The position numbers and the translations under genes were made by a program. The notes beneath the pieces are model-generated. The model was not told the DNA's origin and did not search any database. It saw only the letters and a list, made by a program, of their open reading frames with translations. From positions 30,309 through 94,308 of the IMG/VR virus record IMGVR_UViG_3300001533_002237: a DNA stretch of 64,000 nucleotides. One strand, given 5' to 3'. Positions within the stretch are counted from its first letter, which is position 1. Every line of letters begins with the position of its first letter. Shown piece after piece: positions 9,558 to 64,000 of this stretch. This DNA comes from a virus.

Positions 9558-9630
9558 ACTCTTGTATATTTGATATATTTACCATATTTTTGATAAATAT
9601 ATTAAAATTATTTTATTTAAAGATAAAAAT

Positions 9631-11763: not shown

Positions 11764-11773
11764 TTTAAAATAA

Positions 11774-13723: not shown

Positions 13724-13751
13724 AAAAGGTGTCGATATAGACACCTTTTTT
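13722..13751. terminator. Bidirectional intrinsic terminator
   Basis: AAAAAAGGTGTC-loop-GACACCTTTTTT between convergent genes. Confidence 0.85.
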
Positions 13752-13768
13752 GTTAAGAAAAATAAAAA

Positions 13769-14188
13769 TTAGTTAATTTTAATTGTCTTACTTAACTTCG
13801 TTTTTTCATTTTTTGGAATTTTTATTGAAAGAATTCCATCGCTGAACGAAGCATCTATTTTATCAGCGATTACGTTCTGTGGTAACGTAAATGATTTCTT
13901 AAAATGACCATAAAAACTACCTTTACGATTGTATTTTATTTCTTCATCAGCAGTACGTTCACCTTCGATTGTTAATATATTATTATCAACATCTAATTTA
14001 ATGTTTTCTTTTTTAAATCCAGCTAAAGCATAATCAACAATATACTCATTATCTTTTTCAACAATATCATAGTCAGGAATAATTGTGTTAACAGGAATAT
14101 CAAGATTAAACATACTATCATCGAAGAAACTGTCAAAAAGATTTAATATTCCATTTTGAGGTTTTGAGTATTTCATTAATGTTGTCAT
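13769..14188 (-). CDS. Small heat shock protein (Hsp20/alpha-crystallin)
   Basis: AGFKKENI...LTIEGER...FKKSFTLP...IDASFSDGILSIKIPK. Confidence 0.92.
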   Translation of the reverse strand: MTTLMKYSKPQNGILNLFDSFFDDSMFNLDIPVNTIIPDYDIVEKDNEYIVDYALAGFKKENIKLDVDNNILTIEGERTADEEIKYNRKGSFYGHFKKSFTLPQNVIADKIDASFSDGILSIKIPKNEKTKLSKTIKIN

Positions 14189-14235
14189 AATTTAAATTTT
14201 TTTAATTAATATTATTATTATTTTCTAAAAACCTT

Positions 14236-14296
14236 ACCAATAATATGCCAAAAGAAATTTTTATGACATATTTTCATTTTGTCAATGTCATAAAAA
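14236..14296 (-). promoter_or_regulatory. Sigma54-like promoter plus TGACA/TGTCA inverted repeat upstream of hsp20
   Basis: Minus strand reads TTGGCATATTATTGGT at 14251-14236; perfect inverted repeat TTTTTATGACAT (14258-14269) / ATGTCATAAAAA (14285-14296). Confidence 0.5.
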
Positions 14297-14324
14297 AAAT
14301 GTGACAGTATTTATCTTAAAAACT

Positions 14325-15065
14325 ATGAAAAAAATATCTATTACGTTATCAAATAAATTATATAATAAAATTAATGAAATTAGACATGATTTATCTAAAA
14401 TAGAAAATTATAATATTAGTTTTGATGAAATTATTGAAGAAAGTATAATGAATCATTTCAATATAAAATTAATTGATATAAATGATGATGTTGAAATTAT
14501 TGATAATAAATTAGTTAATGCAATCAATCAATCAAATAATCATAACAATTATTATATCTATGTTTATTTTAATGAAAGAAAAAAATGTAATATTAAAGTA
14601 GGTGATTATATTTTTACTTCTGAACCAATATATATTGGAAAAGGGTTAAATAATAGGATGTTTGAATTAAGTAATCGAGATAATAATCTAATTGATTTTA
14701 TTGATGAATTAAAAAGTACAAATGAATTTTCATCAGTTAAATTAATTAATGATTTAACTAAAGAAAATGCATTTTATTATGAACAAATGTTTATTAGTTC
14801 AATTGGTAGATTAAATAATGGTACAGGAACATTATATAATAAAAATGGTGGAAATTTAAATATTTTAAAAAAAGAAATTGATTCAAACAATTATGAATTA
14901 AATATTGAGTATAATTTAGGAAAAATGATATTAGATTCTTTAAATAAAACAAAAAATATGTCAAAAACAGCAAAAGAACTGAATATTAATCTTAGAACAC
15001 TTTATAGAAAATTAGATAAATATTCAATAAAAAAATATGGTGATAATTGGGTTATTTTAAAATAG
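14325..15065 (+). CDS. GIY-YIG-like protein with C-terminal Fis-type HTH
   Basis: YYIYVY...IYIGKG..NR motif; KTAKELNINLRTLYRKL HTH; likelier ATG at 14325. Confidence 0.65.
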   Translation: MKKISITLSNKLYNKINEIRHDLSKIENYNISFDEIIEESIMNHFNIKLIDINDDVEIIDNKLVNAINQSNNHNNYYIYVYFNERKKCNIKVGDYIFTSEPIYIGKGLNNRMFELSNRDNNLIDFIDELKSTNEFSSVKLINDLTKENAFYYEQMFISSIGRLNNGTGTLYNKNGGNLNILKKEIDSNNYELNIEYNLGKMILDSLNKTKNMSKTAKELNINLRTLYRKLDKYSIKKYGDNWVILK

Positions 15066-15113
15066 TTTGTATATTATCGTTCTTTTAGATATATTTGTAA
15101 AAAAAATAAAATA

Positions 15114-18100: not shown

Positions 18101-18446
18101 GCTTGATGTTGATGACCTTAGACCTAAATTAATATATAATGACAGACCAAATTCGATTATTGATTGTATTAGTGCAAGTGGTAAAGAAAGAACATTTTCA
18201 AGTGTTGTTTTAAAATTTGCTTTAAATAAAGTTAATGTAAAAGCAAAACCGAATATTTTTTTATTAGATGAAGTAATGGGTAAATTAGATGAAAATAGTG
18301 TTGAAGAATTTATTGAAATATTATTATTAATTAAACAAAAAATGAAAAAAGTATTAGTAATTGAACACAGAACTAATATCGAACCAGATTACTTAATTGA
18401 TGTTAATGTTAATAATGAAGGAATATCAAGTTTAAGTATTGAATAA
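15114..18446 (+). CDS. Fused SbcD/Mre11 nuclease - SbcC/Rad50 ATPase
   Basis: DIH, GD, GNHD, GDIH phosphoesterase motifs; Walker A GENTAGKT; Zn hook CSQC; signature ASGKE; Walker B LLDE. Confidence 0.9.
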   Translation: MNIRTICHMADIHIRKTPTRNDEYQEVFDRTIDSISNNKPDRIVIVGDLVHDYLDLQGEQLIMANDFLKKLAKIAPVRITRGNHDCRKKNLKRVDSIKAIVKTLGDYDVIYYEKTGFYTDDNIIWVIWHHGESKNNPWKTKEGKKINAYKTESGLTTVDLFHDPITGCISTTDFEMKSKSYYKISDFKGDISMFGDIHRMQFLDKKKTKAYCGSLIAQNISEGDDAFHGYLLWDIEKLEAIQVPIHNDYSYHNIKITPYTDFEDLDFEIDNSTKFMRIRFVWATLPQTRTKENERKVIEYIKSKYKNITISHKNEFIENDNVDINETITLENVTDKAVQQEIFKEYLEKIGTDEQLIKDILALDEEILKEIDVFDEQSIEWDIIKFGGNNFMSYEKLDIDWRELDGLFQITGENTAGKTTIMKIITYILFGKTLETENRVKFGDKRFVNNRNNASFTDAYLVLEANGEYFGIKKKTEINKNKSGDIIGTPTSLSYYILASPDDEMNDDSALEKLDEDHRIKTQKKINSIIGTYDNFMRIVMTTSDTLNKILSNDMADFIDSLLYDSGLDIFDKKLEGLKTYQKRINEKPKIVCNVETTTNQNTILNQEIKVLQNEIIEIEENRLPDIKKRISTGRDYIETLTKKLYQIDPEIYNLDVDIAREDISDNQKNIVEIKARKMVLHQSINNLKETYDENRLNELIEKRDNHKQLVYDKKLEIKSLERQKSEYEHKIEVINGSIFILKKDGGKLKDEIVVLKNSKVCSQCGQVIDKKEHQDHIIKMVGLKETEMFNIVKEIKEHENDINVNWKPLINKCNKDITKIDEEIIQLGLDMEDILTEIGTLTNDQNDVNKCKQFQSELDLIPTRIQNEELKINILKQKINQHENSLKQIEENKRIEKGIVAAKERVESLVIDENDYKEDIFIKKTSIGEKQIKIKDNEKLVSEYKVQEYQNNVMSLYKKCVHRDGIPRQMLTNYIIPKINVTLENILSVAQFKVWLDVDDLRPKLIYNDRPNSIIDCISASGKERTFSSVVLKFALNKVNVKAKPNIFLLDEVMGKLDENSVEEFIEILLLIKQKMKKVLVIEHRTNIEPDYLIDVNVNNEGISSLSIE

Positions 18447-18481
18447 AACATAATTATTACTATTTATTGTAAACGAAAAAA

Positions 18482-19633
18482 ATGGATTTAAAGAAATATG
18501 ATAAATTAAGAAAAAAGATAGACACTAAAGATTTTGAAGGTGCTAATAAAGAATTGGATAAATGGTTATTTAATTTTTCATTTGTTGGAAATGTAAGTTC
18601 AATATTTTTTGCATATTTTTTAGTTTTTCCTTCACTATTAAAAGCAATTTCTGCAAATTTTATTACTGGTGATTGGGGAATGATTATTGCTTTTATATTA
18701 ACATTAGTTTTCTTATCAATTTTTGAAATAATAAAAAGGTATTTTGTTCGAAATTTCAGTAATGACTTTGTAAAAAATCAAAGAAAACTTGGATTTAAAA
18801 TGTTAGGTTGGTTAATTATATCAATGGTAACGATTATCTTGAGTTTTTATTTATCAATAAATGGTTCTAAAAATTTAGCAATAACAAATTTATCAAAATA
18901 TAATGTAGCTAAAACCGAGATATCATCATTAAAAGATAGTCTTAATTTAATATATGATGAAAAAATATCAGTATATGTTAATGATAACAAATCATTAAGG
19001 GCAATTAATATTGAATTACGTGAAAAATTAAAAGAAACACCTTTAAATTATATTACAGCAAGAAAAGAATATCAAAATAGTATTGATAAAAACACTAATT
19101 TAATTAAAGATAATAATAATGAAATAAAATTAATTAAAATAGAACTTCAATCAAAGATTGAAGAATTACAAACAGAATTATCTACAACTAAATCTAGTAA
19201 TGAAGATGCTGATACGAAAAATAAAATATTATTCATAATAATTGTTTGTTTTAATGAATTGATTATAATTGGTGGTCTTTATTTTCGAGAATATTTTGAA
19301 TATAATTTATATGTTATTAATCAAGATAAATTTGAAAATATTTATAAGAAAAAAGATAGATATCGTGCATTAATTACATTCATTTATCGTGATGGTAAAT
19401 TGAATATTGGTGATAGAGTAATGAGTGGATTAGAATTAAAGGCTGCTGTTGCTGAAAAAGCAAAAATTAATAATTCAAATAAATTTGTTGATGAATTTTT
19501 ACGTGATATGGATAGATTAAATATTTTTACTACCGTTGGTAAAAGAAGAAATATTGCAACAAGTTTTATTGAAGCATTAGATATCATTGAGAATTTTGAT
19601 GATACTTATAGAATACTTGAAAATATGAAATAA
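18482..19633 (+). CDS. Multi-pass membrane protein with coiled coil
   Basis: About four hydrophobic segments flanking a long heptad region. Confidence 0.6.
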   Translation: MDLKKYDKLRKKIDTKDFEGANKELDKWLFNFSFVGNVSSIFFAYFLVFPSLLKAISANFITGDWGMIIAFILTLVFLSIFEIIKRYFVRNFSNDFVKNQRKLGFKMLGWLIISMVTIILSFYLSINGSKNLAITNLSKYNVAKTEISSLKDSLNLIYDEKISVYVNDNKSLRAINIELREKLKETPLNYITARKEYQNSIDKNTNLIKDNNNEIKLIKIELQSKIEELQTELSTTKSSNEDADTKNKILFIIIVCFNELIIIGGLYFREYFEYNLYVINQDKFENIYKKKDRYRALITFIYRDGKLNIGDRVMSGLELKAAVAEKAKINNSNKFVDEFLRDMDRLNIFTTVGKRRNIATSFIEALDIIENFDDTYRILENMK

Positions 19634-19636
19634 ATT

Positions 19637-19807
19637 ATGGGTGAAGAAAGAGATAAAGCAAGACTAATTAAAGACGCATTAAAAATTGTTGATAAGTTAA
19701 CTAAATTTGATGTTGATGATTTGAGTGGTTATGATAAAGATATTTTAGAAGAATTAGTCGATAAAGCAAAAAAATTAAAGAAAAATAGATTATTTGTATT
19801 GAAATAG
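19637..19807 (+). CDS. Small hypothetical protein (56 aa)
   Basis: ATG 19637 to TAG 19807, MGEERDKARLIKDALK...; fills the gap, below the ORF-track cutoff. Confidence 0.6.
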   Translation: MGEERDKARLIKDALKIVDKLTKFDVDDLSGYDKDILEELVDKAKKLKKNRLFVLK

Positions 19808-19849
19808 CAACTAATTTAATAATTATAGTATTTATATTAAATAGATATT

Positions 19850-20932
19850 ATGAGAAAAAGAAGAAATTTTTGGAATAAAGAAAATTGTCATAAAGCAGCA
19901 TTAAAATATTTAACAAGAAGTGAATTTAAATTAAATTATCCTTCAGCATATCATAGCGCAAGGAAAAATAAGTTTCTTAATGAAATTTGTTCACACATGA
20001 TTAAATTGGGTAATATAAAAAAAAGATGTATATATTCTTTTGAATTTTCAGATAATCATGTTTATGTGGGATTAACAGGTAATCCAAAAAAAAGAATGAT
20101 GTGGAGAAAAAATAATAAAAAAGATTCAGTAACTAAACATATTTTAAAAACTGGACTTGAACCTAATTATAAACAATTGACAGATTTTATAGATATCAAT
20201 GAAGCATCTAAAATGGAAGGTATTTTACTTAATAAATATATTAATGATGGTTGGAAAACATTAAATATATCAAAAACAGGTGGAATTGGTAGCGACAATT
20301 TTTTTTGGAATAAAGAAAATTGTCACAAAGAAGCATTGAAATATCAAAGTAGAAATGATTTTAGAATTAACTCTGGAAGTGCATATAACTCATCACGTAG
20401 AAACGGATGGTTGAATGAAATTTGTGAACATATGGAAAAGCCTAAACGTGTAATATTTTGGACTTTTGATGTATGTAAAAAAGAAGCATTGAAATATCAA
20501 ACTAAGAAAGAATTTAGTGAAAAATCATCTTCTGCATATAGCACATCTGTGCAAAATAAATGGATTGATGGGATTTGTGGTCATATGCATAAATTACCAT
20601 ATAATACTATTTATTGGACTAAAGAAAATTGTGAGAGTGCTGCAAGTAAATGTAAAACGAAAACAGAATTTGCTAAAAAATATGGTGGTGCATATTATAG
20701 GTCACGTAAGAATAATTGGTTAAATGAATTTTTTTTAATATTAATTATTGGGATGTTAAGTTCATGTGCTACAATACAAGTTAATCAATATTCAAATATT
20801 GGAATATCGCCTGAAGTCAGAAAAGAACAGATTAATGCTCAAAAAAGAATTAACAAACAACAAAGAATTGTTAATAGAGAACATAGGAAAAGAACTAGAT
20901 ATATTAATAACCTTCAAAATAAAAAAATATGA
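19850..20932 (+). CDS. GIY-YIG homing-type endonuclease with four helical repeats, running in frame into a lipoprotein-like tail
   Basis: CIYSFE...VYVGLT..R motif; repeats W.KE.C..(E/A)ALKY..R.EF; tail FLILIIGMLSSC. Confidence 0.7.
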   Translation: MRKRRNFWNKENCHKAALKYLTRSEFKLNYPSAYHSARKNKFLNEICSHMIKLGNIKKRCIYSFEFSDNHVYVGLTGNPKKRMMWRKNNKKDSVTKHILKTGLEPNYKQLTDFIDINEASKMEGILLNKYINDGWKTLNISKTGGIGSDNFFWNKENCHKEALKYQSRNDFRINSGSAYNSSRRNGWLNEICEHMEKPKRVIFWTFDVCKKEALKYQTKKEFSEKSSSAYSTSVQNKWIDGICGHMHKLPYNTIYWTKENCESAASKCKTKTEFAKKYGGAYYRSRKNNWLNEFFLILIIGMLSSCATIQVNQYSNIGISPEVRKEQINAQKRINKQQRIVNREHRKRTRYINNLQNKKI

Positions 20933-29651: not shown

Positions 29652-29999
29652 ATGGATGATGAAAAAGAAATATTACCTCTTGATAATGATTTATCTGATT
29701 ATATTTCATTAAGTAATCATCTTAAAGATGATACTGAAAGGAAGAAAAAATTAATTTCTAACGAAATTGAAGAACTTGGTGAAACATATATTTTCGAAAT
29801 AGAACGAAAAAGAAAAAATAAAGAATTAAAACAAAAAAAATTAATTCCTTATATATTGAAATATTGTAATGAAAAATATAGTAAAAAAGAGTTAACTTCA
29901 TATAGTTTAGAAGATATACAAGAAATTTATAATCAAATCAAAACTGAAAGAAAATCCCCGATAATTAAATTTATTGAATTTATTTTTAATCTTGAATAA
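29652..29999 (+). CDS. Hypothetical protein
   Basis: 115-aa ORF. Confidence 0.55.
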   Translation: MDDEKEILPLDNDLSDYISLSNHLKDDTERKKKLISNEIEELGETYIFEIERKRKNKELKQKKLIPYILKYCNEKYSKKELTSYSLEDIQEIYNQIKTERKSPIIKFIEFIFNLE

Positions 30000-30043
30000 T
30001 TTGATTATATTTGTTAATTATAAACTTTAAATAATATAATATA

Positions 30044-30838
30044 ATGGTACAAAAACAATTATTTGATGATATTTTTTATCCTCAACGTATTCATGAAATA
30101 CTTTTTTTAAATGTTAAATCAATCTTAACATACCCAACACTTATATTACTTGAGTCAAACAATAAAGTAATGTTTGAGCGTTGGAAATACTTATCGCAAA
30201 GTAAGTATGATACTCTTGATACTGACCAATATGAAGATTTACAAAAAGTCTATGAAAAAAACGCACCATATTATCCTGAATATAGTAAAATTGTTGCAAT
30301 AACATATGGAACTGTTTATATTGAAGATGGGAAATTAAAGCGTTACATGAAAAAGATTGTAAATAATGATGAATTTATTGTTTTGGCTACTTTCATGGAT
30401 GAATTATTCAAAGTATCAAGCGATGGTATTAAGTCAACACCTAATTTTTTTCCAATTCTTTGTGGACATAATATTATTGGTTATGATATTCCTTTATTAA
30501 TGAAAAAATTTATTCAGTATAATGATAGGTTTGAAACAAATAAAACAATTCCTTTAATTCTTAAAAAAAGTTTAACAATTAAACCTTGGGAATCAGGAAT
30601 TATTGATACCCTTAATGTTTGGAAATTTAATGGTTATGATAATATGCCGTTAATGTTAATATCTGATTATCTTGGTCTAAAAAAGACTGTAGATTTACTT
30701 CCACTTGACGAAATGTCAAAAAAATATTGGGAATTATATGATGAAGATATTGAAAAGGCAATGGAATTCGTTTCACTACAATCTGCAACACAAACAAATT
30801 TAGTAATTCAGTTAATTAATACTTTACGAGTATTGTGA
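30044..30838 (+). CDS. PolB-related 3'-5' exonuclease-like protein, ExoI acids apparently lost
   Basis: PEYSKIVAI, LCGHNIIGYDIP, KPWE..IDT..WKF; LFLNVKS occurs where D-x-E is expected. Confidence 0.7.
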   Translation: MVQKQLFDDIFYPQRIHEILFLNVKSILTYPTLILLESNNKVMFERWKYLSQSKYDTLDTDQYEDLQKVYEKNAPYYPEYSKIVAITYGTVYIEDGKLKRYMKKIVNNDEFIVLATFMDELFKVSSDGIKSTPNFFPILCGHNIIGYDIPLLMKKFIQYNDRFETNKTIPLILKKSLTIKPWESGIIDTLNVWKFNGYDNMPLMLISDYLGLKKTVDLLPLDEMSKKYWELYDEDIEKAMEFVSLQSATQTNLVIQLINTLRVL

Positions 30839-32183: not shown

Positions 32184-32445
32184 AAATAAAATTTAAATAA
32201 AATTATTTTTTTATTGATTATCAGTTACTTGTGTTTAGTAACATCAGCCCACAATAGAGGAAGTTAGTGGTTTTTAAATGAAAATGCCCAGAATATTTAA
32301 TATTTCTGGATATGATGAAATTCAAGGGGTTATGTTTAATTGAATTTCGTTGTCGATGAATTCCACTTCGACATTTTTTTATTATTTTTGAATTTACATT
32401 CATAATTTCGTTAATATAAATACTAAAGATATCGAAAAGACCAAA

Positions 32446-37946: not shown

Positions 37947-38438
37947 TTAATTTAATAGATTATTTAATATTTTTTCTTTTATTCCACTTTGTTTAATACC
38001 TTCATTAGCACGTGGTGTATGAACAAAATAATCACCCAACCAACGACTAAGATTAAGGTCATCAATAGCAAGATATTTTTTTATTCCGTGCTTTTTTGCA
38101 TATTGTATAATATCATATGCACGACATTCTTCGAGTTCAGATAATTTTGTAAATTTATCACCCCATGCAGTACCAGTAACATCACTGATTTTACAATTAA
38201 CTTCATTCCATTCGAATATTTCATTTAATTGTTCAATAGTATAATGATTTTGCCAATCGCTTGACAATATAATAATTGGATTAATTTTTTTTATTATTTC
38301 ATTAAATACATCAACGCATTTTTTATCAAAACGATAACATGCGTATTCTTCATGCCATTTTTTTGGGTTGCTATAATATTGGTTGGTAGTGGCGAGTACT
38401 CCATCTATATCTAAAAAAATATAATGTTTAGATTTCAT
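37947..38438 (-). CDS. HAD-family phosphatase (RNA-repair HAD-like)
   Basis: FLDIDGVL, ILSSDW, AIDD. Confidence 0.8.
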   Translation of the reverse strand: MKSKHYIFLDIDGVLATTNQYYSNPKKWHEEYACYRFDKKCVDVFNEIIKKINPIIILSSDWQNHYTIEQLNEIFEWNEVNCKISDVTGTAWGDKFTKLSELEECRAYDIIQYAKKHGIKKYLAIDDLNLSRWLGDYFVHTPRANEGIKQSGIKEKILNNLLN

Positions 38439-39225
38439 CTAATAATTTTTTTACTCTATCAATATGTTTTTTTGCCATTGGCTTACCACATGTATTTAAT
38501 TTAATAAACGCTTCAAATATAGTCTTTTTATTTGGATTAATCAAATATCCATAAAAAATTGAATAATTTTCAAATTTATTTTTATCCATTCCAGATAACT
38601 CAGAATAATAAAAACCATTATATTTAAAACGGTCTTCATAGAATTCAGCAATTGTTCTAAGTCTTTGTTTACCATCAAGAATTTTATAAAGTTTACCTTT
38701 AAAACTAAAAAGTCGTTGAATAAAAACAAATTTACCAATATCAATATTATCAAAAATACTAGCAATTAAATCATGTTTATCATCTAAACTCCAAACATGT
38801 TCACGTTGATATTCAACATCAAAATCAACACCACTATGATATACCATATTTAATAATGATGAAATAGATGAATTCAATTGAGTAATTCTATATGTTTCTT
38901 CTTTACAAAAAGATGTGTTTTTTCTAGTATCAATATATGGTAATAAATCATGCCATTCAATTATTTGTTGTTCATTTGCAGGTGGTTTATCTCTTTCCCT
39001 TTGAACATTAATATTTTCAATCCTATAATAAAGTCCATCTCTAAATATTTCACGAATATAAGTTTCTTTATGTGCACCATAACAAACTCGTTCACCAACA
39101 CTAAATTTTCTTGTTGGATTTAATGGTAATATACCATAATCAATATTTAATTCAATATCTCTAATTGAAGATTGAAGTAATGATTCTTGATGTGCAATAG
39201 AGTCAATTTTTTTTCGTTTTTTCAT
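38428..39225 (-). CDS. DUF262 (ParB-like) domain protein
   Basis: YQREHVW, ILDGKQRL, FIKLNT.G. Confidence 0.8.
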   Translation of the reverse strand: MKKRKKIDSIAHQESLLQSSIRDIELNIDYGILPLNPTRKFSVGERVCYGAHKETYIREIFRDGLYYRIENINVQRERDKPPANEQQIIEWHDLLPYIDTRKNTSFCKEETYRITQLNSSISSLLNMVYHSGVDFDVEYQREHVWSLDDKHDLIASIFDNIDIGKFVFIQRLFSFKGKLYKILDGKQRLRTIAEFYEDRFKYNGFYYSELSGMDKNKFENYSIFYGYLINPNKKTIFEAFIKLNTCGKPMAKKHIDRVKKLLDEI

Positions 39226-39240
39226 AAATTTTTATTTATT

Positions 39241-39268
39241 ATACGAAAACAAATTTAATTTGTTACAA
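39241..39268 (-). promoter_or_regulatory. ECF-type promoter TTGTAAC-N16-CGTAT
   Basis: Exact motif upstream of the start at 39225. Confidence 0.75.
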
Positions 39269-44794: not shown

Positions 44795-45958
44795 ATGACA
44801 AAAGTATCAATAGTAATCGGAGCATTATATGGTGACGAAGGTAAAGGTTCTTTCGTTAATTATTTGTGTAGTCAAACAATAAAACCTTTAGTAATAAGAT
44901 TCAATGGTGGACATCAAGTTGGACATACAGTTGTTAATAATGACGGAACAAAACATGTATTTTCAAATTTTGGTTCAGGTACACTTCAAAACACACCTAC
45001 TTATTGGTCAGAATATTGTACTGTAAGTCCTGTTGGAATACAAAAAGAAGGTAGGATATTAAATGAATTAGGTATTGAACCTGAATTATATCTTAATGCT
45101 AATGCAATGGTTACAACACCATTTGATATATTACAAAATCACAAACTTGAAGCAAGTAATAATCATGGTAGTGTTGGTGTGGGTTTTGGTACAACAATTC
45201 AAAGAAATGAAGATAATTATCGTTTATATGTTCGTGATTTACAATATTCTAAAATCAGAGATGAAAAACTTAAATTAATAATAAATAATTATTATAATTT
45301 ACCTTTCAATCCTGCTTGTGCATATCAAAATAAAGAGACTAGAAAAATATATGATAATTTTATTGCAGCATGTGATGATTTGATTGGTAGATATGAAATA
45401 ATTAATGATTTAAAATCACATGGTTTATATAATCATGATATGATTTTTGAAGGTGCTCAAGGCATTATGCTTGATAAAAATTATGGATTCTTTCCTCATG
45501 TAACAAGAAGCAATACAACATCAAAAAATGCTTTGGAAATAATTAAAACAATTCCATTAAATGTTGATATAAATACATATTATATCACACGAGCATATCA
45601 AACTAGACATGGTAATGGATATATGACTAATGAAGGTTCAGACATTAGTTATATAAAAAACAACCCTAAAGAAACTAATGTTGAAGGTTTTCAGGGTGAA
45701 TTCAGAAAATCAATATTGGATTTAGATGTATTAAATTATGCTATTTCATGTGATAAATATCATAATCCAGATATGTTCTCAAAAAAGAAATTAGTTATTA
45801 CATGTCTTGACCAAGTACCTGAAAATATACCTATAACGGTTAATGGTGTTAAAGGTGTTGCAAATTATGAACAAATTTCTAGATTTTGCAAAATTAAACA
45901 CGTTTTTCCTGTATATTCTGATACAGGATTTAAATTTAATAATGATAAACAATTGTAA
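44795..45958 (+). CDS. Adenylosuccinate synthetase-like protein (divergent PurA family)
   Basis: YGDEGKG, RFNGGHQVGHT, FEGAQG..LD..YGFFPHVT.S, TRHGNG. Confidence 0.85.
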   Translation: MTKVSIVIGALYGDEGKGSFVNYLCSQTIKPLVIRFNGGHQVGHTVVNNDGTKHVFSNFGSGTLQNTPTYWSEYCTVSPVGIQKEGRILNELGIEPELYLNANAMVTTPFDILQNHKLEASNNHGSVGVGFGTTIQRNEDNYRLYVRDLQYSKIRDEKLKLIINNYYNLPFNPACAYQNKETRKIYDNFIAACDDLIGRYEIINDLKSHGLYNHDMIFEGAQGIMLDKNYGFFPHVTRSNTTSKNALEIIKTIPLNVDINTYYITRAYQTRHGNGYMTNEGSDISYIKNNPKETNVEGFQGEFRKSILDLDVLNYAISCDKYHNPDMFSKKKLVITCLDQVPENIPITVNGVKGVANYEQISRFCKIKHVFPVYSDTGFKFNNDKQL

Positions 45959-56222: not shown

Positions 56223-56463
56223 AGAAAAATTATTAGCATTAGGGTTTGAAGAAGTATATTCAACACCAGAACAAAGTGGTACTGAAAAAGGATTTTATTA
56301 TTACACATATAATATTGATGGTCAGTGTTTATTAATTTCAGATGCTAGTGATGAAAATGATGGTAATTACACTATTGAATTTTTTGAATTTAATTCAATT
56401 AAAATTTTTGAATTTGAAGAATTAATTAAATTTATTGAAATTGTAAAAAGAAACACAAAATAA
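56167..56463 (+). CDS. Hypothetical protein (true start probably the internal MKDIT)
   Basis: ORF coupled to the helicase start. Confidence 0.5.
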   Translation: MKKNIEELKERQKMKDITKEKLLALGFEEVYSTPEQSGTEKGFYYYTYNIDGQCLLISDASDENDGNYTIEFFEFNSIKIFEFEELIKFIEIVKRNTK

Positions 56464-57878
56464 TGGAAGATAATCAATTGAAATTACCTAATGGTAAAAT
56501 CATTACATTTAATTCAGAACAATTTGATGGGTTGAAAAAAATAAATCATTGGTTAAATAATGGTGAAACTTTCTTTACTTTGAGTGGTCCTGCTGGTTCA
56601 GGAAAATCTACAATAATAAAAAAAATATTAGATAATTATCGTTATGGTGTAGTAGTAAGTGCACCAACACATAAAGCTGTTGGAGTTATTCAAAAAATAA
56701 CTAATAAAGATGGTCAAACTTTGCATTCATTATTAGGATTAAGACCAGATATTGATATTTCGGATTTTAATCCTAATTCACCAATATTTAACCCAATTGC
56801 ATTACCAAAAATTAATAATTATAATTTAGTTATTATTGATGAAGCATCAATGATTAATATTGATTTATATAATTTAATAAAAGAAAAAGTTAAAAATCAT
56901 AAAACTAAGGTACTATTTATTGGTGATATTGCTCAAATACCGCCTGTTGGTGAAAAAGAAAGTGTGGTATTTAATGATATTAATGTTGAAAAATATTATC
57001 TAACAAAAATTGAACGACAACAAGATACCAACCCAATATTATTTGTTGCAGATAATGTTAGAAATAATTTAACAGCTATTGATGGTGGATTTCTCAGGAA
57101 AACAAATCGAAACAAATTAGGTGAAGGCATTGAATTTATAATTGATAAAAGGAAATTTAAAAATATCATTTTAGATAAATTTATGTCAGATGATTTTAAA
57201 AAAGATATTGATTATTGTAGAGGTATTGCATGGAAAAATGATACGGTAATCAAATCAAATAAAATTATTAGAACAGCAATTTTTGGTAACAAAACCGATG
57301 TTGTCGAATTAAACGATATTATTATGGGGTATCGAACAATTACTGATGAAAAACAAAGAAATATTATTATAAAAAATTCTGGTGATTACCTTATTGTTGA
57401 AAAATCTGAATTAGAAGAAAACAAATATGGTATTAAAGGTTATAGAGTTAAATTAAAAGAAGAATTAAATTGGGGTCATTTCAATTTTGAAGATATTTTT
57501 ATTATTAATACAAATGATAAAGAAAATTTACATTTATATGGTGAAATGCATGATTTTTTTAAAGACATGGGTATTAATAATAAAAAAATGTGGGCGAAAT
57601 ATTATGAATTTCGTAGACATAATATTTTGATGAAAACAATTGATAAGTACCGAAATGGTCAATATAGGGATAATAAAAATATTATAGTTAAAGATATTGA
57701 TTATGGATACTTTTTAACATGTCACAAAGCACAGGGTTCTACATATGAACATGTTGTTATAATATTAAGTGATATTGAAGAAAATTGGATATTAAAGGAA
57801 CGAAATCAACTTTTTTATACATCATTAACACGTCCAACAAAAACAGCCACAATATTGTGTAATAAAGTTGATTATTAA
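56463..57878 (+). CDS. Dda/RecD-like SF1B helicase
   Basis: GPAGSGKS, SAPTHKA, IIDEASM, GDIAQIPPV, TCHKAQGST, YTSLTR. Confidence 0.9.
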   Translation: MEDNQLKLPNGKIITFNSEQFDGLKKINHWLNNGETFFTLSGPAGSGKSTIIKKILDNYRYGVVVSAPTHKAVGVIQKITNKDGQTLHSLLGLRPDIDISDFNPNSPIFNPIALPKINNYNLVIIDEASMINIDLYNLIKEKVKNHKTKVLFIGDIAQIPPVGEKESVVFNDINVEKYYLTKIERQQDTNPILFVADNVRNNLTAIDGGFLRKTNRNKLGEGIEFIIDKRKFKNIILDKFMSDDFKKDIDYCRGIAWKNDTVIKSNKIIRTAIFGNKTDVVELNDIIMGYRTITDEKQRNIIIKNSGDYLIVEKSELEENKYGIKGYRVKLKEELNWGHFNFEDIFIINTNDKENLHLYGEMHDFFKDMGINNKKMWAKYYEFRRHNILMKTIDKYRNGQYRDNKNIIVKDIDYGYFLTCHKAQGSTYEHVVIILSDIEENWILKERNQLFYTSLTRPTKTATILCNKVDY

Positions 57879-58604
57879 TTATATTGATTTAATTATATAC
57901 CATCCACAATATTTACCCCTTTTTATTTTTTCATTATTTCTATATGTATTACAAAAACTGTGTTCTGGTAAGTTTAGTTTCTTTAATTCATTTTTTATGT
58001 TTCCATGTATTTTATGAAATAATTCATTATTTTGGTTATAAATTTTATATACACTACTTTTAGTTTTACTTATTTTTAATTTTGTTTTATCTGTATGAAT
58101 AAGACCTGTTTTACTTTTACTCATTTTTTCTTTAGTCTCTTTAGAACGTTTTAAACCTTTAATTGCTATACATAATTTATCTCTGGTTTGTTTTGACGGA
58201 AAATATGTGTGTACTCCCTTTTTAGCGTTACTTATTTTTATTTTTGTTTCTTTAGAACGCTTAATTCCTTTAAGAGTATTACTTATTTTTATTTTTGTTT
58301 CATTTAACATTTTTATTGTGTTACCTCCTTCATTCAAATTCAAACTATGTTTAGTATTAAATGTATCATAAAATTTAATATAATATTTTTCATAATCATT
58401 TAACTCAGATTCCAAACATTCATGAATTACTTCAAATATATGCATATTCCAACCATATTTAATTATTGAATTATGAATTTTTGGTTGACCAATACCTAAT
58501 TTACCATTATAATGATATATTCTTTTTTTTATATCTTTCGACTGACCAATATAAATTTTACCTGAAGGTGATGTTATTTTATATATCCCACAAATTTTAT
58601 TCAT
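57879..58604 (-). CDS. GIY-YIG homing endonuclease with NUMOD3 repeats
   Basis: CGIYKITSPSGKIYIGQS...R; repeated SKETK.K(I/M)S. Confidence 0.88.
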   Translation of the reverse strand: MNKICGIYKITSPSGKIYIGQSKDIKKRIYHYNGKLGIGQPKIHNSIIKYGWNMHIFEVIHECLESELNDYEKYYIKFYDTFNTKHSLNLNEGGNTIKMLNETKIKISNTLKGIKRSKETKIKISNAKKGVHTYFPSKQTRDKLCIAIKGLKRSKETKEKMSKSKTGLIHTDKTKLKISKTKSSVYKIYNQNNELFHKIHGNIKNELKKLNLPEHSFCNTYRNNEKIKRGKYCGWYIIKSI

Positions 58605-58660
58605 GAATCCTAATATTTTTTGAAAATTTTTTCATATCTTTGTACAAATTTGAAAAAGTT

Positions 58661-60400
58661 ATGCTAATACAAGAAAATATTAATTCTAAGCAAATTACTT
58701 TTTATCTAAACAAGATTATTTCAGGGCAGACTGGATTTGAACAGAATTTAGATAAAAAGCACAGAAAGCAAAATGGAGTATTTCTTACTAATTCTATAAA
58801 TACTGTTGAAAATGTTTTAAGTGTCATTGAAATTGACTCAGATATTTTTAGCAAGCGTATTCTTGAACCTTCATGTGGTCAAGGTATTTTCATTTTAAAA
58901 ATTATTGCTGATGTATTTCAAAAATTTCCTGATAAAAAGTTGATTGATGGATTTATTTCAAATAATCTTTTCTTTGTCGATGTACAAGAAGAAATGATTG
59001 AAAAAACAAAATCTAATATTCAATCACTTTACAAATTCCTTTTAGGGATAGAATATACAGGTACATTTAATTCTATTACATGGGATTTCACTGATAAAGC
59101 ACCAGTTGAAACAAACTTATTTGATATACCTAAAAACACACCGTTTACTAATCTTTATAATTCGTTTGATTATGTTATTGGAAATCCACCTTATGTTACT
59201 TTATACGGTAGAAGAGATAAAAAGCAAAACGAAGAACAACGCATAAATTACTTGAAAAATTATAATCAGTTTCCTAATTCTGTAAAAAACGGTAAGATAA
59301 ATTTGGTTATGTTGTTTTTAGAACACTCACTAGATTTTCTTAAAGAGAATGGGAAATTGAGTTTTATTATTGATGTATCTTTTTTTGAAACTGCTTATGA
59401 GCATACAAGAAAATATTTGTTAGACAAAACAAAAATTCTGGAATTACATGTAAATATTAAAGATTTTGATGTTGCAAGCGGACAAGTTATTATTAAAATT
59501 GTAAAATCAAATGGATTAAAGAATAACGATGTTAAGATACAAGACCATAAAACTCAAAATAGTTATTTTATACCACAATTAAGTTGGTTGAATAAAAATG
59601 ACGAATACAAATTTAGATATAATGGTTGTGGTATTTCAAAACAAATCATTGATAAGGTAATTGCAAGGAAAGACAAAACTTTAATGGGGTTGTTCCCTAA
59701 TAAAAACCTTAGAACATGTGTAATGCTGCTTGACATGGAAGATAAATTTACTTTTCAAGATTATACAGGAAAAGATGAAACCCTGATTTATCCCTATTAC
59801 CAAGGTTCAAAAGCACTTTCTGAAAAATATGGCAAATTAAATTTTACAAAATACTTCTATTACAATAAACCGCTTCAAGATTCTATTAATGACGAATTGA
59901 AAATACAACTTGAAAAGGAGGGTGTAAAAAATAAGAAACGACTAGGACTTGGTGAAACTATAATTTATAATAACCCTAAATTATACATTCGCCAGTCTGC
60001 TAAAGAAATAATCTCAACTGTTGACTTAAATAAAAGTTCCGCAAACAATAGTCTGTATGTATTTTCATTACGAAATAATAAACCTGAAACAATAGAATTT
60101 CTGTACTTTTTGTGTGGTTGGTTGAATACAGATTTGATTACATATTATTCCCAGCAGATGAATATAATTCGTTATTCACAAGGCAAGCAACCACAAATTA
60201 AAATATCTGATTTAGGAACAATATTTATTCCTGAAGATAAAATTTTACAGAAACAATTTGGTGATTTGAGTAAACAAATCTATGAATATCCAACAAGAAA
60301 GAACGAAATATCAGATAAGTTGAATAGTTTGATATATCAATATTATGAGTTAAATGAAATTGAAATTGAAACAATTGCGAAAGGGATTAAAGATTTTTAA
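58661..60400 (+). CDS. Type II N6-adenine DNA methyltransferase (gamma class, TaqI/Eco57I-like)
   Basis: LEPSCGQG motif I precedes GNPPY motif IV; C-terminal TRD; TATCTTTG -7 box at 58635 supports ATG 58661. Confidence 0.88.
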   Translation: MLIQENINSKQITFYLNKIISGQTGFEQNLDKKHRKQNGVFLTNSINTVENVLSVIEIDSDIFSKRILEPSCGQGIFILKIIADVFQKFPDKKLIDGFISNNLFFVDVQEEMIEKTKSNIQSLYKFLLGIEYTGTFNSITWDFTDKAPVETNLFDIPKNTPFTNLYNSFDYVIGNPPYVTLYGRRDKKQNEEQRINYLKNYNQFPNSVKNGKINLVMLFLEHSLDFLKENGKLSFIIDVSFFETAYEHTRKYLLDKTKILELHVNIKDFDVASGQVIIKIVKSNGLKNNDVKIQDHKTQNSYFIPQLSWLNKNDEYKFRYNGCGISKQIIDKVIARKDKTLMGLFPNKNLRTCVMLLDMEDKFTFQDYTGKDETLIYPYYQGSKALSEKYGKLNFTKYFYYNKPLQDSINDELKIQLEKEGVKNKKRLGLGETIIYNNPKLYIRQSAKEIISTVDLNKSSANNSLYVFSLRNNKPETIEFLYFLCGWLNTDLITYYSQQMNIIRYSQGKQPQIKISDLGTIFIPEDKILQKQFGDLSKQIYEYPTRKNEISDKLNSLIYQYYELNEIEIETIAKGIKDF

Positions 60401-61106
60401 TTTTATCTTCTTGCAATTTATTAAGTTCTTTGAGTTTATCAATGGACAAATCGGTTTTAAAATTTCCTTGACGCAAATTTTTTAATTGTTCATTTGCCTT
60501 TTTTAATTTTCTTTCATTAGATTCAATTTTCTTCTGAAGTAAAAATTCTAAAAAATCTTCTCTAGTTCTGTAGGATGGAGGTGCAAACCCATTCACTTGC
60601 ATTTGATTTGCGGGTGTTATTCTCATTGTATTACTAACGTCTTTCAGAAAGTATGATTTAACAACTAAATCATTGTGTTTTACAAACTCCAATCCTGTAT
60701 CATTTCCCTTATAGTAAACAAGAATGTATACCAAATAAAAATAACCGCTATTCATCAATGTCAATACCTTGGCAGGAGTTCCACTATCTGGATTTGTGTC
60801 ATCATTATCTACATTTATTGCTTTGAAGTCAATCCAAAGTAATTCACGATGATTATTAATTTCAAAAAAGGTTTGAACATCAAAGGGGTTCTTTGTTTTT
60901 CCTTCTGGCGAAGCTAATGAGTCTCTAAAATATTGGTGTGTTTTTGTAAAATCAACAAACTTATTTTCAAGATATTTGCTTATCCCATCACCAACTCGTT
61001 CTCCTTTTTTTACAGCGATTGCTAATTTAGGGCTACTGTTGATTATTTGTTCAACTACATCATTTAATTGTGCAATTATTAATTCTTCGTATGTTTTAAT
61101 GTCCAT
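60387..61106 (-). CDS. Putative type II restriction endonuclease
   Basis: PD-(D/E)XK-like PFD...WIDFK; convergent with the MTase and directly downstream of a C-protein gene. Confidence 0.7.
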   Translation of the reverse strand: MDIKTYEELIIAQLNDVVEQIINSSPKLAIAVKKGERVGDGISKYLENKFVDFTKTHQYFRDSLASPEGKTKNPFDVQTFFEINNHRELLWIDFKAINVDNDDTNPDSGTPAKVLTLMNSGYFYLVYILVYYKGNDTGLEFVKHNDLVVKSYFLKDVSNTMRITPANQMQVNGFAPPSYRTREDFLEFLLQKKIESNERKLKKANEQLKNLRQGNFKTDLSIDKLKELNKLQEDKIKNL

Positions 61107-61107
61107 T

Positions 61108-61326
61108 TTACTTGAATAAATCTGATTTAAAAAATTCGTAAACGGACATATTCAATGCTTTTGCAATTTTTTCAATATTGGCAACGGAAACATTTCTTTT
61201 TCCTTGTTCAATACTTGCAATGTAGGTTCTATCAAGTTCACATTCAAATGCAAACTTTTCCTGACTAAGACCTTTTAGTTTTCTTAATTCTCTTAATCTT
61301 ATTCCTATTTTTTCTTTAATGTCCAC
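61108..61326 (-). CDS. R-M controller (C) protein, XRE HTH
   Basis: GLSQEKFA...LDRTYIASIEQGKRNVS..NIEKIA; likelier GTG start at 61326. Confidence 0.85.
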   Translation of the reverse strand: MDIKEKIGIRLRELRKLKGLSQEKFAFECELDRTYIASIEQGKRNVSVANIEKIAKALNMSVYEFFKSDLFK

Positions 61327-61361
61327 AAGTGCAAAATTGCACAATTGTAGTTTATCATACA

Positions 61362-61374
61362 ACGGACTATAAGT
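61362..61374 (-). promoter_or_regulatory. C-box operator
   Basis: Minus strand ACTTATAGTCCGT resembles the C.Esp1396I/C.AhdI-type box; about 35 nt before the C gene. Confidence 0.7.
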
Positions 61375-61620
61375 ATAGTTTAGGAAATATTTTGTGATGG
61401 GGAAATTTGGCTCTTTGGCTTTTGCGAAGCAATGGCTTGTGTTTCGGGCAAATGACAATGTGCCAAATGTGTGTCGGTTTTCCGTTTTTCTTTCTTGTGG
61501 GTCGGCAAAAAAAACTAAATCTTTTTCCTTTCAAATCAGTCATTCCGCTTTTCTAGTATTTCGTTTTCAATTCAATCATTTCTGCTCAAGTTTGTCCTTC
61601 GTTGTCTTTCCTCGCCTTGT

Positions 61621-61713
61621 TGGTAACGGTTGGGTGTATGAAACGTAGCCACACGCAACACTTGATATAAACCACTAACCTTAATTGGCTATGTTTTATA
61701 CACCTTGTTATAT
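61621..61713 (-). repeat. attC-like site 1
   Basis: TAAC (61624) + GGTGTATGAAACGTAGCC / GGCTATGTTTTATACACC + GTTA (61707). Confidence 0.8.
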
Positions 61714-61829
61714 GCAGTGCGGAAATATATTACAAACTTTGATACGAGAGATGAACCTTTTTGTTTTATTTTTGTGGGTGGGAAATTAAAATTTGAATAT
61801 TTATATATAGAATAAAACTATTTATTAAT

Positions 61830-62756
61830 ATGGAATTAAGAAAATTTATAGCAACTAGTATACGTGAATATTTGAATGAACAAATTACCTTTGATAATTT
61901 TAATTTAAATTCTGATTTTATTGGTGATTTAAAAAAAGAATTATCCAAATTCAAATCGGATGAAGATTTACTTAGAAGTGGGGGTCTTTCAATTGAATTA
62001 TTAGATAGATTAGCACATGGTTTTTCAGAAGAAGATATAAAAACTCTCAATCCAAATCAATTAAAAATAAAATGGAAAGATGATTTAGAAAATGTTAAAT
62101 GGGAGATAAATAAAAGCGGATTAACACCAAAACAGTGGGCTTTTAAAGTAGATTTATCAGAACCAATTGATGTTTCATATTGGGAAGATAATAAACATAA
62201 AAAAGATTTCTATATTGAGGATGGACATCATAGATATATGGCTGCTAAAATTTTAAATAAACCACTTAATGTTAATTTAGAAATAGAAGTTAATCCCATA
62301 AAGATAATAGCACCAAATATGGGTTATGATGAGTTTCATAGATATATCTTCAAATCATTTAAAAGTGATAAATTAAATGAAGAGTTAATTAATAACAATA
62401 TAATTACCGTTTATCATGGAATAAAACCAAAATTTGTTAATGACATAAAAAGAAATGGTTTAATTGATAAGTCTGGTTATAATCAAGGTTGGTATATGGT
62501 TTCAACTGATTTTGAAAGTGCGTTATTTCATGCACATCCTGATGAAAATGATAATAATGTTTATGTTGTTGAGTTTGAAATCCCTAATAAACAAAATGAT
62601 AGATGGGATGGTTATCCATATTTATGGAAAGGGCAAAAAATGAAAGATAATTCTACTTGGTTTGCATTGATGCAACAAATACCTAAAGAATTTATTAAAA
62701 AAACACATAAAATAAATTATACTGATTGGATTAAACAAAAAAATCGAGGGTTTTAA
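61830..62756 (+). CDS. Cassette gene: ParB/Srx-like plus ADP-ribosyltransferase-like domains with a virion-protein-like N-terminus
   Basis: MELRKFIATSIREYLNE; IEDGHHR; VYHG...GWYMVSTD..SA...VVEFE. Confidence 0.55.
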   Translation: MELRKFIATSIREYLNEQITFDNFNLNSDFIGDLKKELSKFKSDEDLLRSGGLSIELLDRLAHGFSEEDIKTLNPNQLKIKWKDDLENVKWEINKSGLTPKQWAFKVDLSEPIDVSYWEDNKHKKDFYIEDGHHRYMAAKILNKPLNVNLEIEVNPIKIIAPNMGYDEFHRYIFKSFKSDKLNEELINNNIITVYHGIKPKFVNDIKRNGLIDKSGYNQGWYMVSTDFESALFHAHPDENDNNVYVVEFEIPNKQNDRWDGYPYLWKGQKMKDNSTWFALMQQIPKEFIKKTHKINYTDWIKQKNRGF

Positions 62757-62816
62757 AAAATAAAACAAAAAGATTATAACCAAAAAACTTAATACGAAGC
62801 AGAAACGTAGCATTGC

Positions 62817-62924
62817 ATATAACGAACGTTTTAACACAAAACTTAAATAGAATGAATAAATATAACAATTAGTATAAACTTTATTTTGAAAAACGAATAA
62901 AATGTTTTATATTTGTTGTTATAA
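62817..62924 (-). repeat. attC-like site 2 (irregular, AT-rich)
   Basis: TAAC 62820 and GTTA 62918; internal stem AATAAATATAA/TTATATTTGTT. Confidence 0.55.
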
Positions 62925-62950
62925 GTATGTAAAATAAAAACGGTAAAATT

Positions 62951-63115
62951 ATGAAAAAGAAAATTAAAGCAGAATTTAGACAAACTAACATTCAAAATTT
63001 GAATGAGTTGACAGAAGAACAAAAGTTTGAATTTCAGAAAGCACTTGAAAAAGAGTTAGAAAGTAAAAATGAAGAAATTCAAATTTTGATTAAGGAAATT
63101 AATAGTAGTAAGTAG
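62951..63115 (+). CDS. Cassette gene: 54-aa hypothetical protein
   Basis: MKKKIKAEFRQTNIQNLNELTEEQKFEFQ...; fills the cassette. Confidence 0.6.
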   Translation: MKKKIKAEFRQTNIQNLNELTEEQKFEFQKALEKELESKNEEIQILIKEINSSK

Positions 63116-63130
63116 TTTTTATTTTATTAC

Positions 63131-63224
63131 TTATAACGGTTTGCGTATATGAGAAGTGGCACTTGTAGAATGTTAAAATTAAGCACAAATGTTTCTGTGC
63201 CATTTCTTATATACGCTGTTATAA
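63131..63224 (-). repeat. attC-like site 3
   Basis: TAAC 63134 + 20-bp stem GCGTATATGAGAAGTGGCAC / GTGCCATTTCTTATATACGC + GTTA 63218. Confidence 0.85.
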
Positions 63225-63261
63225 GCTGGCTGCGGATTATTAACGATAAACTTTAATTGAA

Positions 63262-63909
63262 ATGAAAATATTAATAGCTTGTGAGGAGAGCCAAGAAGTT
63301 TGCAGAGCTTTCCGAGAATTAGGATTTGAGGCTTATAGTTGCGACCTACAAGAATGTAGCGGTGGAAAACCCGAATGGCACATTGTAGGCGATGCAGTTA
63401 AAGAGGCTTATAGTGGCAAATATGATATGATGATTGCACACCCACCTTGCACTTATATGAGTAGGGCTGGAGCAAGATGGATGTATCCAACGGCAGGTAA
63501 TTTGTGCCAAGATAGATACGCAAAAGCAATGGAAGCTAAAGCTATGTTTTTGGAACTACTTAATGCACCGATTGAACTTATTGCAGTTGAAAACCCAGCA
63601 CCATTAAAAGTAGTTGAATTGCCAAAACATAGCCAAGCGATACAGCCATACGAATATGGACACGAATACAGTAAACGAACTTTATTATGGTTGAAAAATT
63701 TGCCACTATTAAAGCCGACCGATATTAAAAGCAATTATAAGCCGTATTTACCGAGCAATACAGGAGGAAAGAAACGAGGACAAAGTTATAGCAGAGGAGT
63801 TTCAAAGAACGCAAAGGAAAGCTCAAAAACTTTTAGTGGTGTGGCAAAAGCTATGGCTGAACAATGGGGAACTTTCATTCGGAGCAGGAACGTAGCAGCT
63901 TGCTTATAA
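63262..63909 (+). CDS. Cassette gene: phage-type DNA cytosine methyltransferase-like protein
   Basis: LIACEES, SCDL, AHPPCTY, VENP, SKTF.G.A.AMAEQW; stop TAA lies inside the TAAC core. Confidence 0.75.
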   Translation: MKILIACEESQEVCRAFRELGFEAYSCDLQECSGGKPEWHIVGDAVKEAYSGKYDMMIAHPPCTYMSRAGARWMYPTAGNLCQDRYAKAMEAKAMFLELLNAPIELIAVENPAPLKVVELPKHSQAIQPYEYGHEYSKRTLLWLKNLPLLKPTDIKSNYKPYLPSNTGGKKRGQSYSRGVSKNAKESSKTFSGVAKAMAEQWGTFIRSRNVAACL

Positions 63910-64000
63910 CGGCTGGCGGTATGAAACGTAGCGGATTTCGTGGTTGCGAACTTATCCACCGTTACAAACCTTGCAAGCGGGGACTGAACTTACAAATTGC
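63904..64000 (-). repeat. attC-like site 4 (truncated by window end)
   Basis: TAAC 63907 + GGCTGGCGGTATGAAACGTAGC, closely similar to the left arm of site 1. Confidence 0.7.

Follow-up and report, generated by a model that had tools for sequence, protein, structure and literature searches.

A probable integron-like cassette array at the end of a large-phage contig, with relatives adjoining an Xer-type recombinase

The region from 61.6 to 64.0 kb of the stretch analysed here (the window: 64,000 nucleotides, positions 30,309 to 94,308 of IMG/VR virus record IMGVR_UViG_3300001533_002237) is very probably the integrase-distal part of a phage-borne, integron-like array of gene cassettes. Comparison with related loci established a family of hairpin sites with a covarying stem and a strict strand polarity, the linkage of these sites to a recombinase, an attI-like junction, exact cassette borders, and the gain or loss of cassettes in cultured sibling phages. 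Under the proposed mechanism, the mobile unit would run from the C of one TAA/C core (slash, crossover) to the TAA of the next and would contain, in order, an imperfect hairpin (about 45, 85 or 125 nt), GTTA with a cassette-specific extension, a short leader, usually one small open reading frame (ORF) on the same strand, and the complementary extension. Excision would join both extensions, lengthening the hairpin stem as in an integron attC, and a 266-amino-acid (aa) Xer-type recombinase, the putative catalyst, would insert cassettes at a junction and excise them between hairpins. Recombination of the + strand probably takes place in its folded, single-stranded form, in which the conserved G.T wobbles and the 4-nt bulge, not extrahelical bases, would mark the strand. 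The contig of the window presumably carries the recombinase gene past base 64000.

Hairpin sites and cassettes of the window

TAAC cores were located at 61624-61627, 62820-62823, 63134-63137 and 63907-63910, and GTTA boxes at 61707-61710, 62918-62921 and 63218-63221, where a preliminary description of the window had placed four sites. Each interval between neighbouring sites held one ORF, as also described there. The sites were scored with a covariance model (R1) trained on 38 sites from other viral contigs, none of them from the window. On the + strand, site 3 (63124..63231) scored 96.4 bits (E 4.5e-18) and site 1 (61614..61720) 84.8 bits (E 1.4e-15), compared with 28.6 and 20.7 bits respectively on the minus strand. 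Beyond sites 1 and 3, the R1 scan of the 64 kb gave no match with E<0.03. A weak match at 16705-16812 (22.6 bits, E 0.033), distant from the array and with several pairs broken, was probably due to chance.

Sites 1 and 3 fold as TAAC, an unpaired 4-nt GGTT, a 20-bp stem, a loop and GTTA. The stems include two G.T wobbles on the + strand, the minus strand having A.C mismatches in their place; the DNA fold z-score of site 3 was -5.67 for the + strand and -3.79 for the minus strand. Site 1 is the integrase-distal end, its GTTA being followed by the start of the R' extension, and its hairpin type was also found in G001, L042, L083 and L086 (80-93% identity). Site 3 was 92-94% identical to sites of L052, L036, L042 and L045. 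Site 2 (62820..62921, + strand) is irregular: the TAAC core, the 3' arm and GTTA are kept, and the 5' arm, AT-rich, is displaced by about 25 nt. This site was not picked up by R1, aligned over its full length (71.5%) with a 114-nt AT-rich site of G001 (L019:18355-18476, R1 46.5 bits), and was near-identical in its 3' arm and cassette start to L020:334-361; it is a decayed member of the family. Site 4 (63907..64000, + strand) consists of the TAAC core and the consensus 5' arm of the long class (GGCT-GGCGGTATGAAACGTAGCGG...), cut by the contig end.

All cassettes of the window lie on the + strand. Cassette A (61628..62823) comprises the site-1 hairpin, a leader (61711-61829), an ORF (61830-62756) and a tail (62755-62823) ending in GCATTGCATATAA/C; its 308-aa protein belonged to no family, with no Pfam, NCBIfam or PDB match and only a weak ParB-like PHROG match. 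Cassette B (62824..63137), with the site-2 hairpin and an ORF of 54 aa (62951-63115), ends in TTTATTACTTATAA/C, and its protein gave weak matches only, to Phage_RB18_ORF43 (PF25760, E 7e-4, 19.9 bits for a cut-off of 27) and to phrog_3826 (E 2.7e-4). Cassette C (63138..63910) comprises the site-3 hairpin and a putative methyltransferase ORF (63262-63909, 215 aa; phrog_757 “DNA methyltransferase”, E 4.5e-51), for which Pfam, NCBIfam and PDB searches gave nothing usable. The stop codon of this ORF is the TAA of the following TAAC core, in agreement with the preliminary description, in which one ORF stopped inside the core.

The two ends of each cassette are complementary to each other. Over the 10 nt past the core, Watson-Crick pairing between the ends was 9, 7 and 8 of 10 for cassettes A, B and C, respectively, compared with 4 of 10 within each hairpin; when G.T pairs were counted, the ends of cassette A paired in 10 of 10 positions and those of cassette C in 9. 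The value for cassette B is ungapped, a single indel interrupting an otherwise approximately 23-nt complement. For 282 units of other contigs, mean pairing (of 10) was 6.35 across the ORF, 3.37 within the hairpin and 3.25 in random pairs, and scores of at least 8 were reached by 45%, 0% and 1%, respectively. The earlier observation that the ends of a unit pair with each other, and not with those of the neighbours, was thus borne out within and outside the window.

Parts of cassette A recur in other loci. Its hairpin, leader, the first 80 nt or so of its ORF and its 70-nt tail were 86-94% identical in L074, L037, L071, L034 and L042 (window 61696-61910 and 62755-62824; L074:9300-9514 and 9888-9954), and the ORF bodies of the cassettes sharing these modules differed in sequence and length. 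The leader and tail of cassette A hold a further 16-nt inverted repeat (TTTTTGTTTTATTTTT and AAAAAATAAAACAAAAA). Module sharing could reflect the way in which cassettes are created, or homologous exchange inside cassettes; it also hints at a cassette scaffold which takes different coding bodies. The GAAACGTAGC motif was considered as a separate signal and rejected: its four matches in the window exceed chance only weakly, 2 of 100 shuffles reaching that number, and it turned out to belong to the tail module and to a single subtype of the hairpin.

Related arrays and their recombinase

The 5' arm of site 1, used as an exact pattern, matched four other viral contigs, three of which carry a tyrosine recombinase. 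At least 11 sites on one strand of G001 (256 kb) run up to the recombinase gene, each followed by a small ORF (three ORFs in one unit). One cassette of this contig (L020:2486-2830) is GC-rich within the AT-rich phage array and has correct complementary ends (GTTATGCGGGG and CCCGCATAAC); its composition suggests that it may have been captured from a foreign source of higher GC. At the nucleotide level, the only match of site 1 and its leader in the isolate phage collection was one of 37 nt, in an uncultured megaphage record.

Searching viral contigs for the recombinase gave 80 loci (56-100% identity), many of them on contigs of 100-362 kb. Hairpin sites in these loci were concentrated upstream of the gene and on its strand: 411 sites upstream on the same strand and 31 on the other, compared with 52 and 26, respectively, downstream. 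The longest arrays had 20 sites, and site lengths were grouped near 45, 85 and 125 nt. The consensus of 401 sites was ATT-N4-ATAAC-GGTTG...T-GTTAT-N4-AGT. Compensatory changes were present in 16 of 24 stem pairs (38 sequences); G.T was found in 37 of the 38 at columns 33/86 (internal) and 15/100 (closing the core helix), and in 20 at columns 28/91 (the first wobble). The consensus stem has no bulged extrahelical bases, and a one-sided 4-nt spacer follows TAAC.

In nearly all loci, the last cassette ends in ATAAC and is followed by a conserved, hairpin-less TAT(T/C)ATATATA (ATAAC/TATTATATATA), about 50 nt before the start codon of the recombinase. In position, this junction is equivalent to attI. 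The recombinase linked to the arrays has 266 aa, with a SAM-like and a catalytic domain. Its best family was the XerA-like NF040815 (195 bits, cut-off 220), and the IntI model TIGR02249 gave 161 bits in two stretches (cut-off 265). It aligned with VchIntIA (PDB 2a3v) at 17-174 and 209-257, residues 175-208 (34 aa) facing residues 178-259 (82 aa), so that the IntI-specific segment of about 48 residues is absent. The nearest cultured relatives were integrases of Cellulophaga and Polaribacter phages (36-41% identity). The preliminary description had proposed an IntI-like recombinase beyond the window or the enzyme of the host; relatives, among them many phages of Bacteroidota-type hosts, always carry a recombinase of their own beside the array, and this enzyme is the Xer-like protein of 266 aa and not of the IntI type.

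Cassette borders, gain and loss, and rival explanations

Only eight pairs from different loci showed nucleotide similarity among the 285 units compared, and the cargo is consequently very diverse. In four informative pairs the cassettes were 84-100% identical and the surrounding arrays unrelated. The hairpin upstream of the ORF was conserved in these pairs (identity 0.79-1.00), but the downstream hairpin was at background level (0.45-0.67), indicating that the mobile unit consists of hairpin, GTTA, leader, ORF and TAA. In L052/L076, L078/L081 and L043/L076 (93-100% identical, with an identity of 0.95-1.00 in the upstream hairpin), identity starts at the upstream ATAAC and stops at the next TAAC(G). 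These limits place the crossover within TAA/C of the + strand, equivalent to G/TTA of the minus strand. In the preliminary description the crossover lay at the GTTA preceding the ORF, which has to be revised, the hairpin travelling with the ORF downstream of it.

Gain or loss of cassettes was observed in cultured Polaribacter phages, a comparison of cassette order in related phages being one of the checks named in the preliminary description. With respect to Freya_1, Freya_10 has an extra block of 4.9 kb with about ten annotated small genes, flanked by sequences 99.8-100% identical in both phages. The insertion point is exactly at ...ACAAC/, beside the integrase gene and at the place corresponding to the attI-like junction, and family-type hairpins are present at several intergenic positions of the block. 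The integrase occupies seven different offsets in the ten Freya isolates, consistent with cassettes being gained or lost step by step. In run X4 (record 17), from a different sample of the study that supplied the window, a contig of 3,286 nt showed no differences over 60500-61628 and diverged from the TAACG core; compared over only 23 nt past the core, it fits a population variant with a different distal cassette. The contigs of the probable source run cover the region in pieces, breaking at repeated modules.

The earlier proposal of an integron-like, shufflable array therefore holds as far as a site-specific cassette array with identical cassettes elsewhere is concerned, with a different polarity and a different enzyme. 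In the integron frame, the minus strand would be the “top” strand, and the recombinase is divergent from the array with attI alongside, an arrangement known from class 1 integrons. Coding strand and foldable strand (“bottom” in integron usage) coincide, and the cassette genes are inverted, reading toward attI.

Several points weigh against a phage-borne array moved by its own recombinase. Neither a recombinase nor an attI-like junction is present on the window's contig, the recombinase being absent because the contig stops at 64000, and both are extrapolated from relatives with which this phage has little other DNA in common. Integration for lysogeny could be a second function of the recombinase, or its only one; the closest cultured relatives carry the plain annotation of phage integrase. 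The polarity is based on only four clean informative cassette pairs plus the Freya pair. Site 2 is degenerate and may have lost its function. The common leader and tail of cassettes with different ORF bodies mean that some exchange may take place by homologous recombination. Finally, no circle junction (62823 to 61628, GCATTGCATATAA joined to CGGTTGGGTG) and no cassette-deletion form was found in the assembled contigs of public data; the candidate joints had short sides (21-60 nt) and mostly reflect modules shared with other cassettes, so that this result speaks neither for nor against circles.

The best of the alternatives, though an unlikely one, is an ordinary bacterial integron fragment from a host chromosome, that is, a cluster of attC sites without an integrase (CALIN), which would have no phage enzyme and would be mobilised, if at all, by the host integrase. 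The window contig has at least two attC-like sites and no integrase on it, which corresponds to the formal definition of a CALIN, and it ends inside site 4. Integrase-less attC clusters have been published in phages (PMC9892861), and Polaribacter phage P12002L has sites with no annotated integrase. Chromosomes of Bacteroidota and Ignavibacteria hold the same site type beside related recombinases. However, the sites of the window have the phage orientation (hairpin before the ORF, on the coding strand), whereas three bacterial arrays have their sites opposite to the ORFs. Sites 1 and 3, together with the leader and tail, are 80-94% identical to those of phage arrays which end at the phage recombinase, and the contig merely stops within site 4, on the side where relatives have this gene.

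Less probable still are regulatory stem-loops (terminator plus promoter) flanking accessory genes and shuffled by homologous recombination without a site-specific recombinase. A precedent is the promoter early stem-loop (PeSL) of T4-type phages: according to what Arbiol and colleagues reportedly described in 2010, such stem-loops flank small accessory genes of the hyperplastic region and were proposed to serve modular shuffling, with exchange said to proceed through the homology of near-identical repeats and no dedicated recombinase. The best fold of the window sites is on the coding strand, where an RNA could form G.U pairs in place of G.T; cassettes with different ORFs have leader and tail modules in common; and each unit would seemingly need its own promoter because the genes point to the insertion site. 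Yet the exchange borders fall on a core of 4-5 nt amid unlike sequence and not inside longer homology, and each cassette has private complementary end extensions, which homologous shuffling would not maintain. Unlike PeSLs, the sites also have a conserved hairpin-less junction as insertion site, and they are almost always linked to a single family of recombinases, which keeps to one side and one strand. A regulatory role could coexist with recombination.

A chimeric assembly joining the phage contig to host or other DNA around 57.8-61.6 kb, which the preliminary description had named as what would overturn its proposal and which could explain the slight rise in GC (0.25 to 0.31 in the final 4 kb) and the switch of gene strand (57.9-61.5 kb) near the join, is hardly credible and excluded as far as the evidence goes: a Logan contig of the probable source run bridges 60500-61725 without difference, the contig of the second sample is identical over 60500-61628, and the same arrangement is found in about 75 independent viral contigs (up to 362 kb), inside long ones, and in cultured phage genomes.

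Relation to integrons, bacterial counterparts, cargo and neighbouring genes

What defines an integron is its integrase, with an extra segment regarded as necessary for the recognition of folded attC DNA. The phage system shares with integrons, including the sedentary chromosomal integrons such as the Vibrio cholerae superintegron, small and mostly single-gene cassettes in arrays. Its sites resemble attC in their R''/R' boxes (ending in AAC and starting with GTT), inner stem, variable loop and conserved stem geometry, although the boxes ATAAC and GTTAT fit the attC RYYYAAC and GTTRRRY only loosely. Further likenesses are the crossover inside the core, the complementary cassette ends, the hairpin-less insertion site by a tyrosine recombinase gene, the very high cassette diversity, and a cargo of unassigned or defence-related function. 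The differences concern the enzyme, which lacks the IntI segment and falls under the IntI family cut-offs; the sites, which have no extrahelical bases and instead two conserved G.T wobbles and a one-sided 4-nt bulge; the cassettes, in which the hairpin lies upstream of the ORF and the ORFs read toward the insertion site, with no co-orientation with the attI promoter; and the carrier, which is a virus.

These features may amount to a second kind of integron, a proposal as likely as not. Its recombinase would be a plain Xer-type enzyme devoid of the IntI insertion, recognising hairpins by their G.T wobbles and one-sided bulge where classical sites have extrahelical bases. Its bacterial form would reside on the chromosomes of Bacteroidota and Ignavibacteria. 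Phages of these hosts, ranging from siphoviruses of 44 kb to jumbo phages of 360 kb, would have adopted the system, with the cassettes inverted, and would use it to acquire and trade genes for counter-defence. It could represent either the ancestral state of the integron or an independent invention of single-strand hairpin recombination. The integron logic would then be present with an enzyme lacking the IntI segment and with sites lacking the bulged bases which that segment reads, and the origin and minimal requirements of hairpin recombination would become directly testable. Viruses, jumbo phages included, would keep a gene-capture platform of their own, and the cultured Polaribacter phages, which differ only by cassettes, offer a laboratory system.

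Homologues of the recombinase were also found in bacteria. Two close relatives (73% and 57% identity) were detected in 185,579 species genomes, both on very small contigs of metagenome-assembled genomes (MAGs), and are presumably binned phage fragments. Homologues at 41-52% identity were common in Bacteroidota and also present in Ignavibacteria. In 26 bacterial loci the gene was followed by 3 kb or more of sequence, and 12 of these had at least two such sites in it, with the orientation opposite to that of the gene. Forty-two of 80 bacterial contigs stopped within 1.2 kb of the gene, which fits repeat arrays, as these tend to break assemblies. Chromosomal arrays were located in L174 (Pelobium, 9761-20100), L171 (Flavobacterium, 9743-18000), L124 (Pedobacter, 9620-15800) and L104 (Ignavibacteria MAG, 12400-14560), the last with four copies of one identical 86-nt site.

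The chromosomal arrays (these four and L118, Flavobacterium) have the same site architecture as those of phages, mostly of the 125-nt class, and the cassette-specific end complementarity; their sites were recognised by the phage-derived R1 at E 1e-3 to 2e-6. The junction motif is the same as well, TATATAxATA/GTTA lying right after the stop codon of the recombinase in L174, L171 and L124. The chromosomal recombinases (Xer-like, 347-388 aa) were 43-48% identical to the phage enzyme and likewise without the IntI insertion. They differ from it by an N-terminal extension and by their position upstream of the array, reading into it, whereas the phage gene is placed after the array. In L174, L171 and L124 the ORFs read away from the recombinase, opposite to the foldable strand as in classical integrons, and the phage cassettes are flipped with respect to them. 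The phage and chromosomal systems are therefore related. One Bacteroidales MAG contig (L108, 109 kb) has the phage-type layout at 2411-10741, seven sites lying upstream of a recombinase 52% identical to the phage enzyme and on its strand; a prophage, or a phage contig placed in the bin, may account for this layout.

Almost no complete integrons were reported in Bacteroidetes with IntegronFinder 2.0 (PMC9024848), a scarcity which is expected if the program requires the IntI segment; integron finders of this kind would class the arrays described here at most as orphan attC clusters. Qi et al. 2023 found parts of integrons, and attC clusters lacking an integrase, in 21 phages and noted methyltransferases among the cargo; in their assays IntI1 recombined five of the phage sites, including a predicted attC of Polaribacter phage P12002L (PMC9892861). 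As P12002L has sites of the present family, that result lends indirect support to integrase-catalysed recombination of such sites as folded single strands. Scanning P12002L (L185) with R1 gave five sites on the strand of the genes (29998-30066, 32213-32291, 38025-38100, 38869-38946 and 39112-39255), four beside methyltransferase or Mom-like genes and the fifth between two small hypothetical genes; no integrase is annotated in this phage. That study thus probably touched the same site family, the P12002L sites being probably its published CALIN. The sites that it reported were few and scattered in each phage, were detected with classical attC models and were taken for components of integrons; a dedicated recombinase without the insertion, long arrays, an attI-like junction and inverted cassettes are not described there (PMC9892861). 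No description of a phage or Bacteroidota integron with a non-IntI recombinase, or of the long arrays, the junction or the inverted cassettes, was found in the literature, the coverage of which was incomplete and leaves such an absence unproven.

The cassettes of the related arrays are small, the medians being 395 bp for the cassette and 79 aa for the ORF. Of 277 ORFs, 249 lie on the strand of the array; the core TAA served as the stop codon in 44 of 282 units. Few of 147 cassette proteins had family matches. These were mainly DNA methyltransferases (N6_N4_Mtase, MT-A70 and several PHROGs), and single matches were to a Tad6 Thoeris inhibitor (E 4.6e-41), an RNA ligase and a YopX protein. The methyltransferases, the Thoeris inhibitor and the RNA ligase point to counter-defence, and the array may be a store of such genes. 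If this is true, counter-defence arrays of phages mirror the bacterial integrons which bank defence genes, and the hundreds of unannotated cassette proteins of 50-100 aa form a ready list of candidate anti-defence genes.

The window is the final 64 kb of its viral contig and ends at base 94308 of 94308. The contig has 25% GC and an estimated completeness of about 31%, indicating that the parent genome is that of a large phage. Replication and repair genes precede the region of the array (primase, SbcCD-like nuclease and DNA ligase, from profile searches), followed by a Dda-like helicase (56463-57878). Next to it, on the minus strand, is the gene of a GIY-YIG homing endonuclease (57879-58604), and after this a complete restriction-modification (RM) unit of the SwaI type, made up of an Eco57I/TaqI-like methylase (58640-60400), a SwaI-like endonuclease (60387-61106, minus strand; PF22081, E 2.6e-103) and a helix-turn-helix controller protein (61108-61458, minus strand). 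The hairpin sites start right behind this block (57879-61458 with the GIY-YIG gene), which abuts the distal end of the array. A partner was sought for the extension upstream of site 1 (GTTACCAACAAGG), and the sole exact match was site 1 itself; the RM block is therefore not bounded like a cassette. Farther from the array, a gene similar to adenylosuccinate synthetase (44795-45958; phrog_1211, E 1e-58) lies beside an ATP-dependent DNA ligase, and could bear on a modified purine pathway in this phage.

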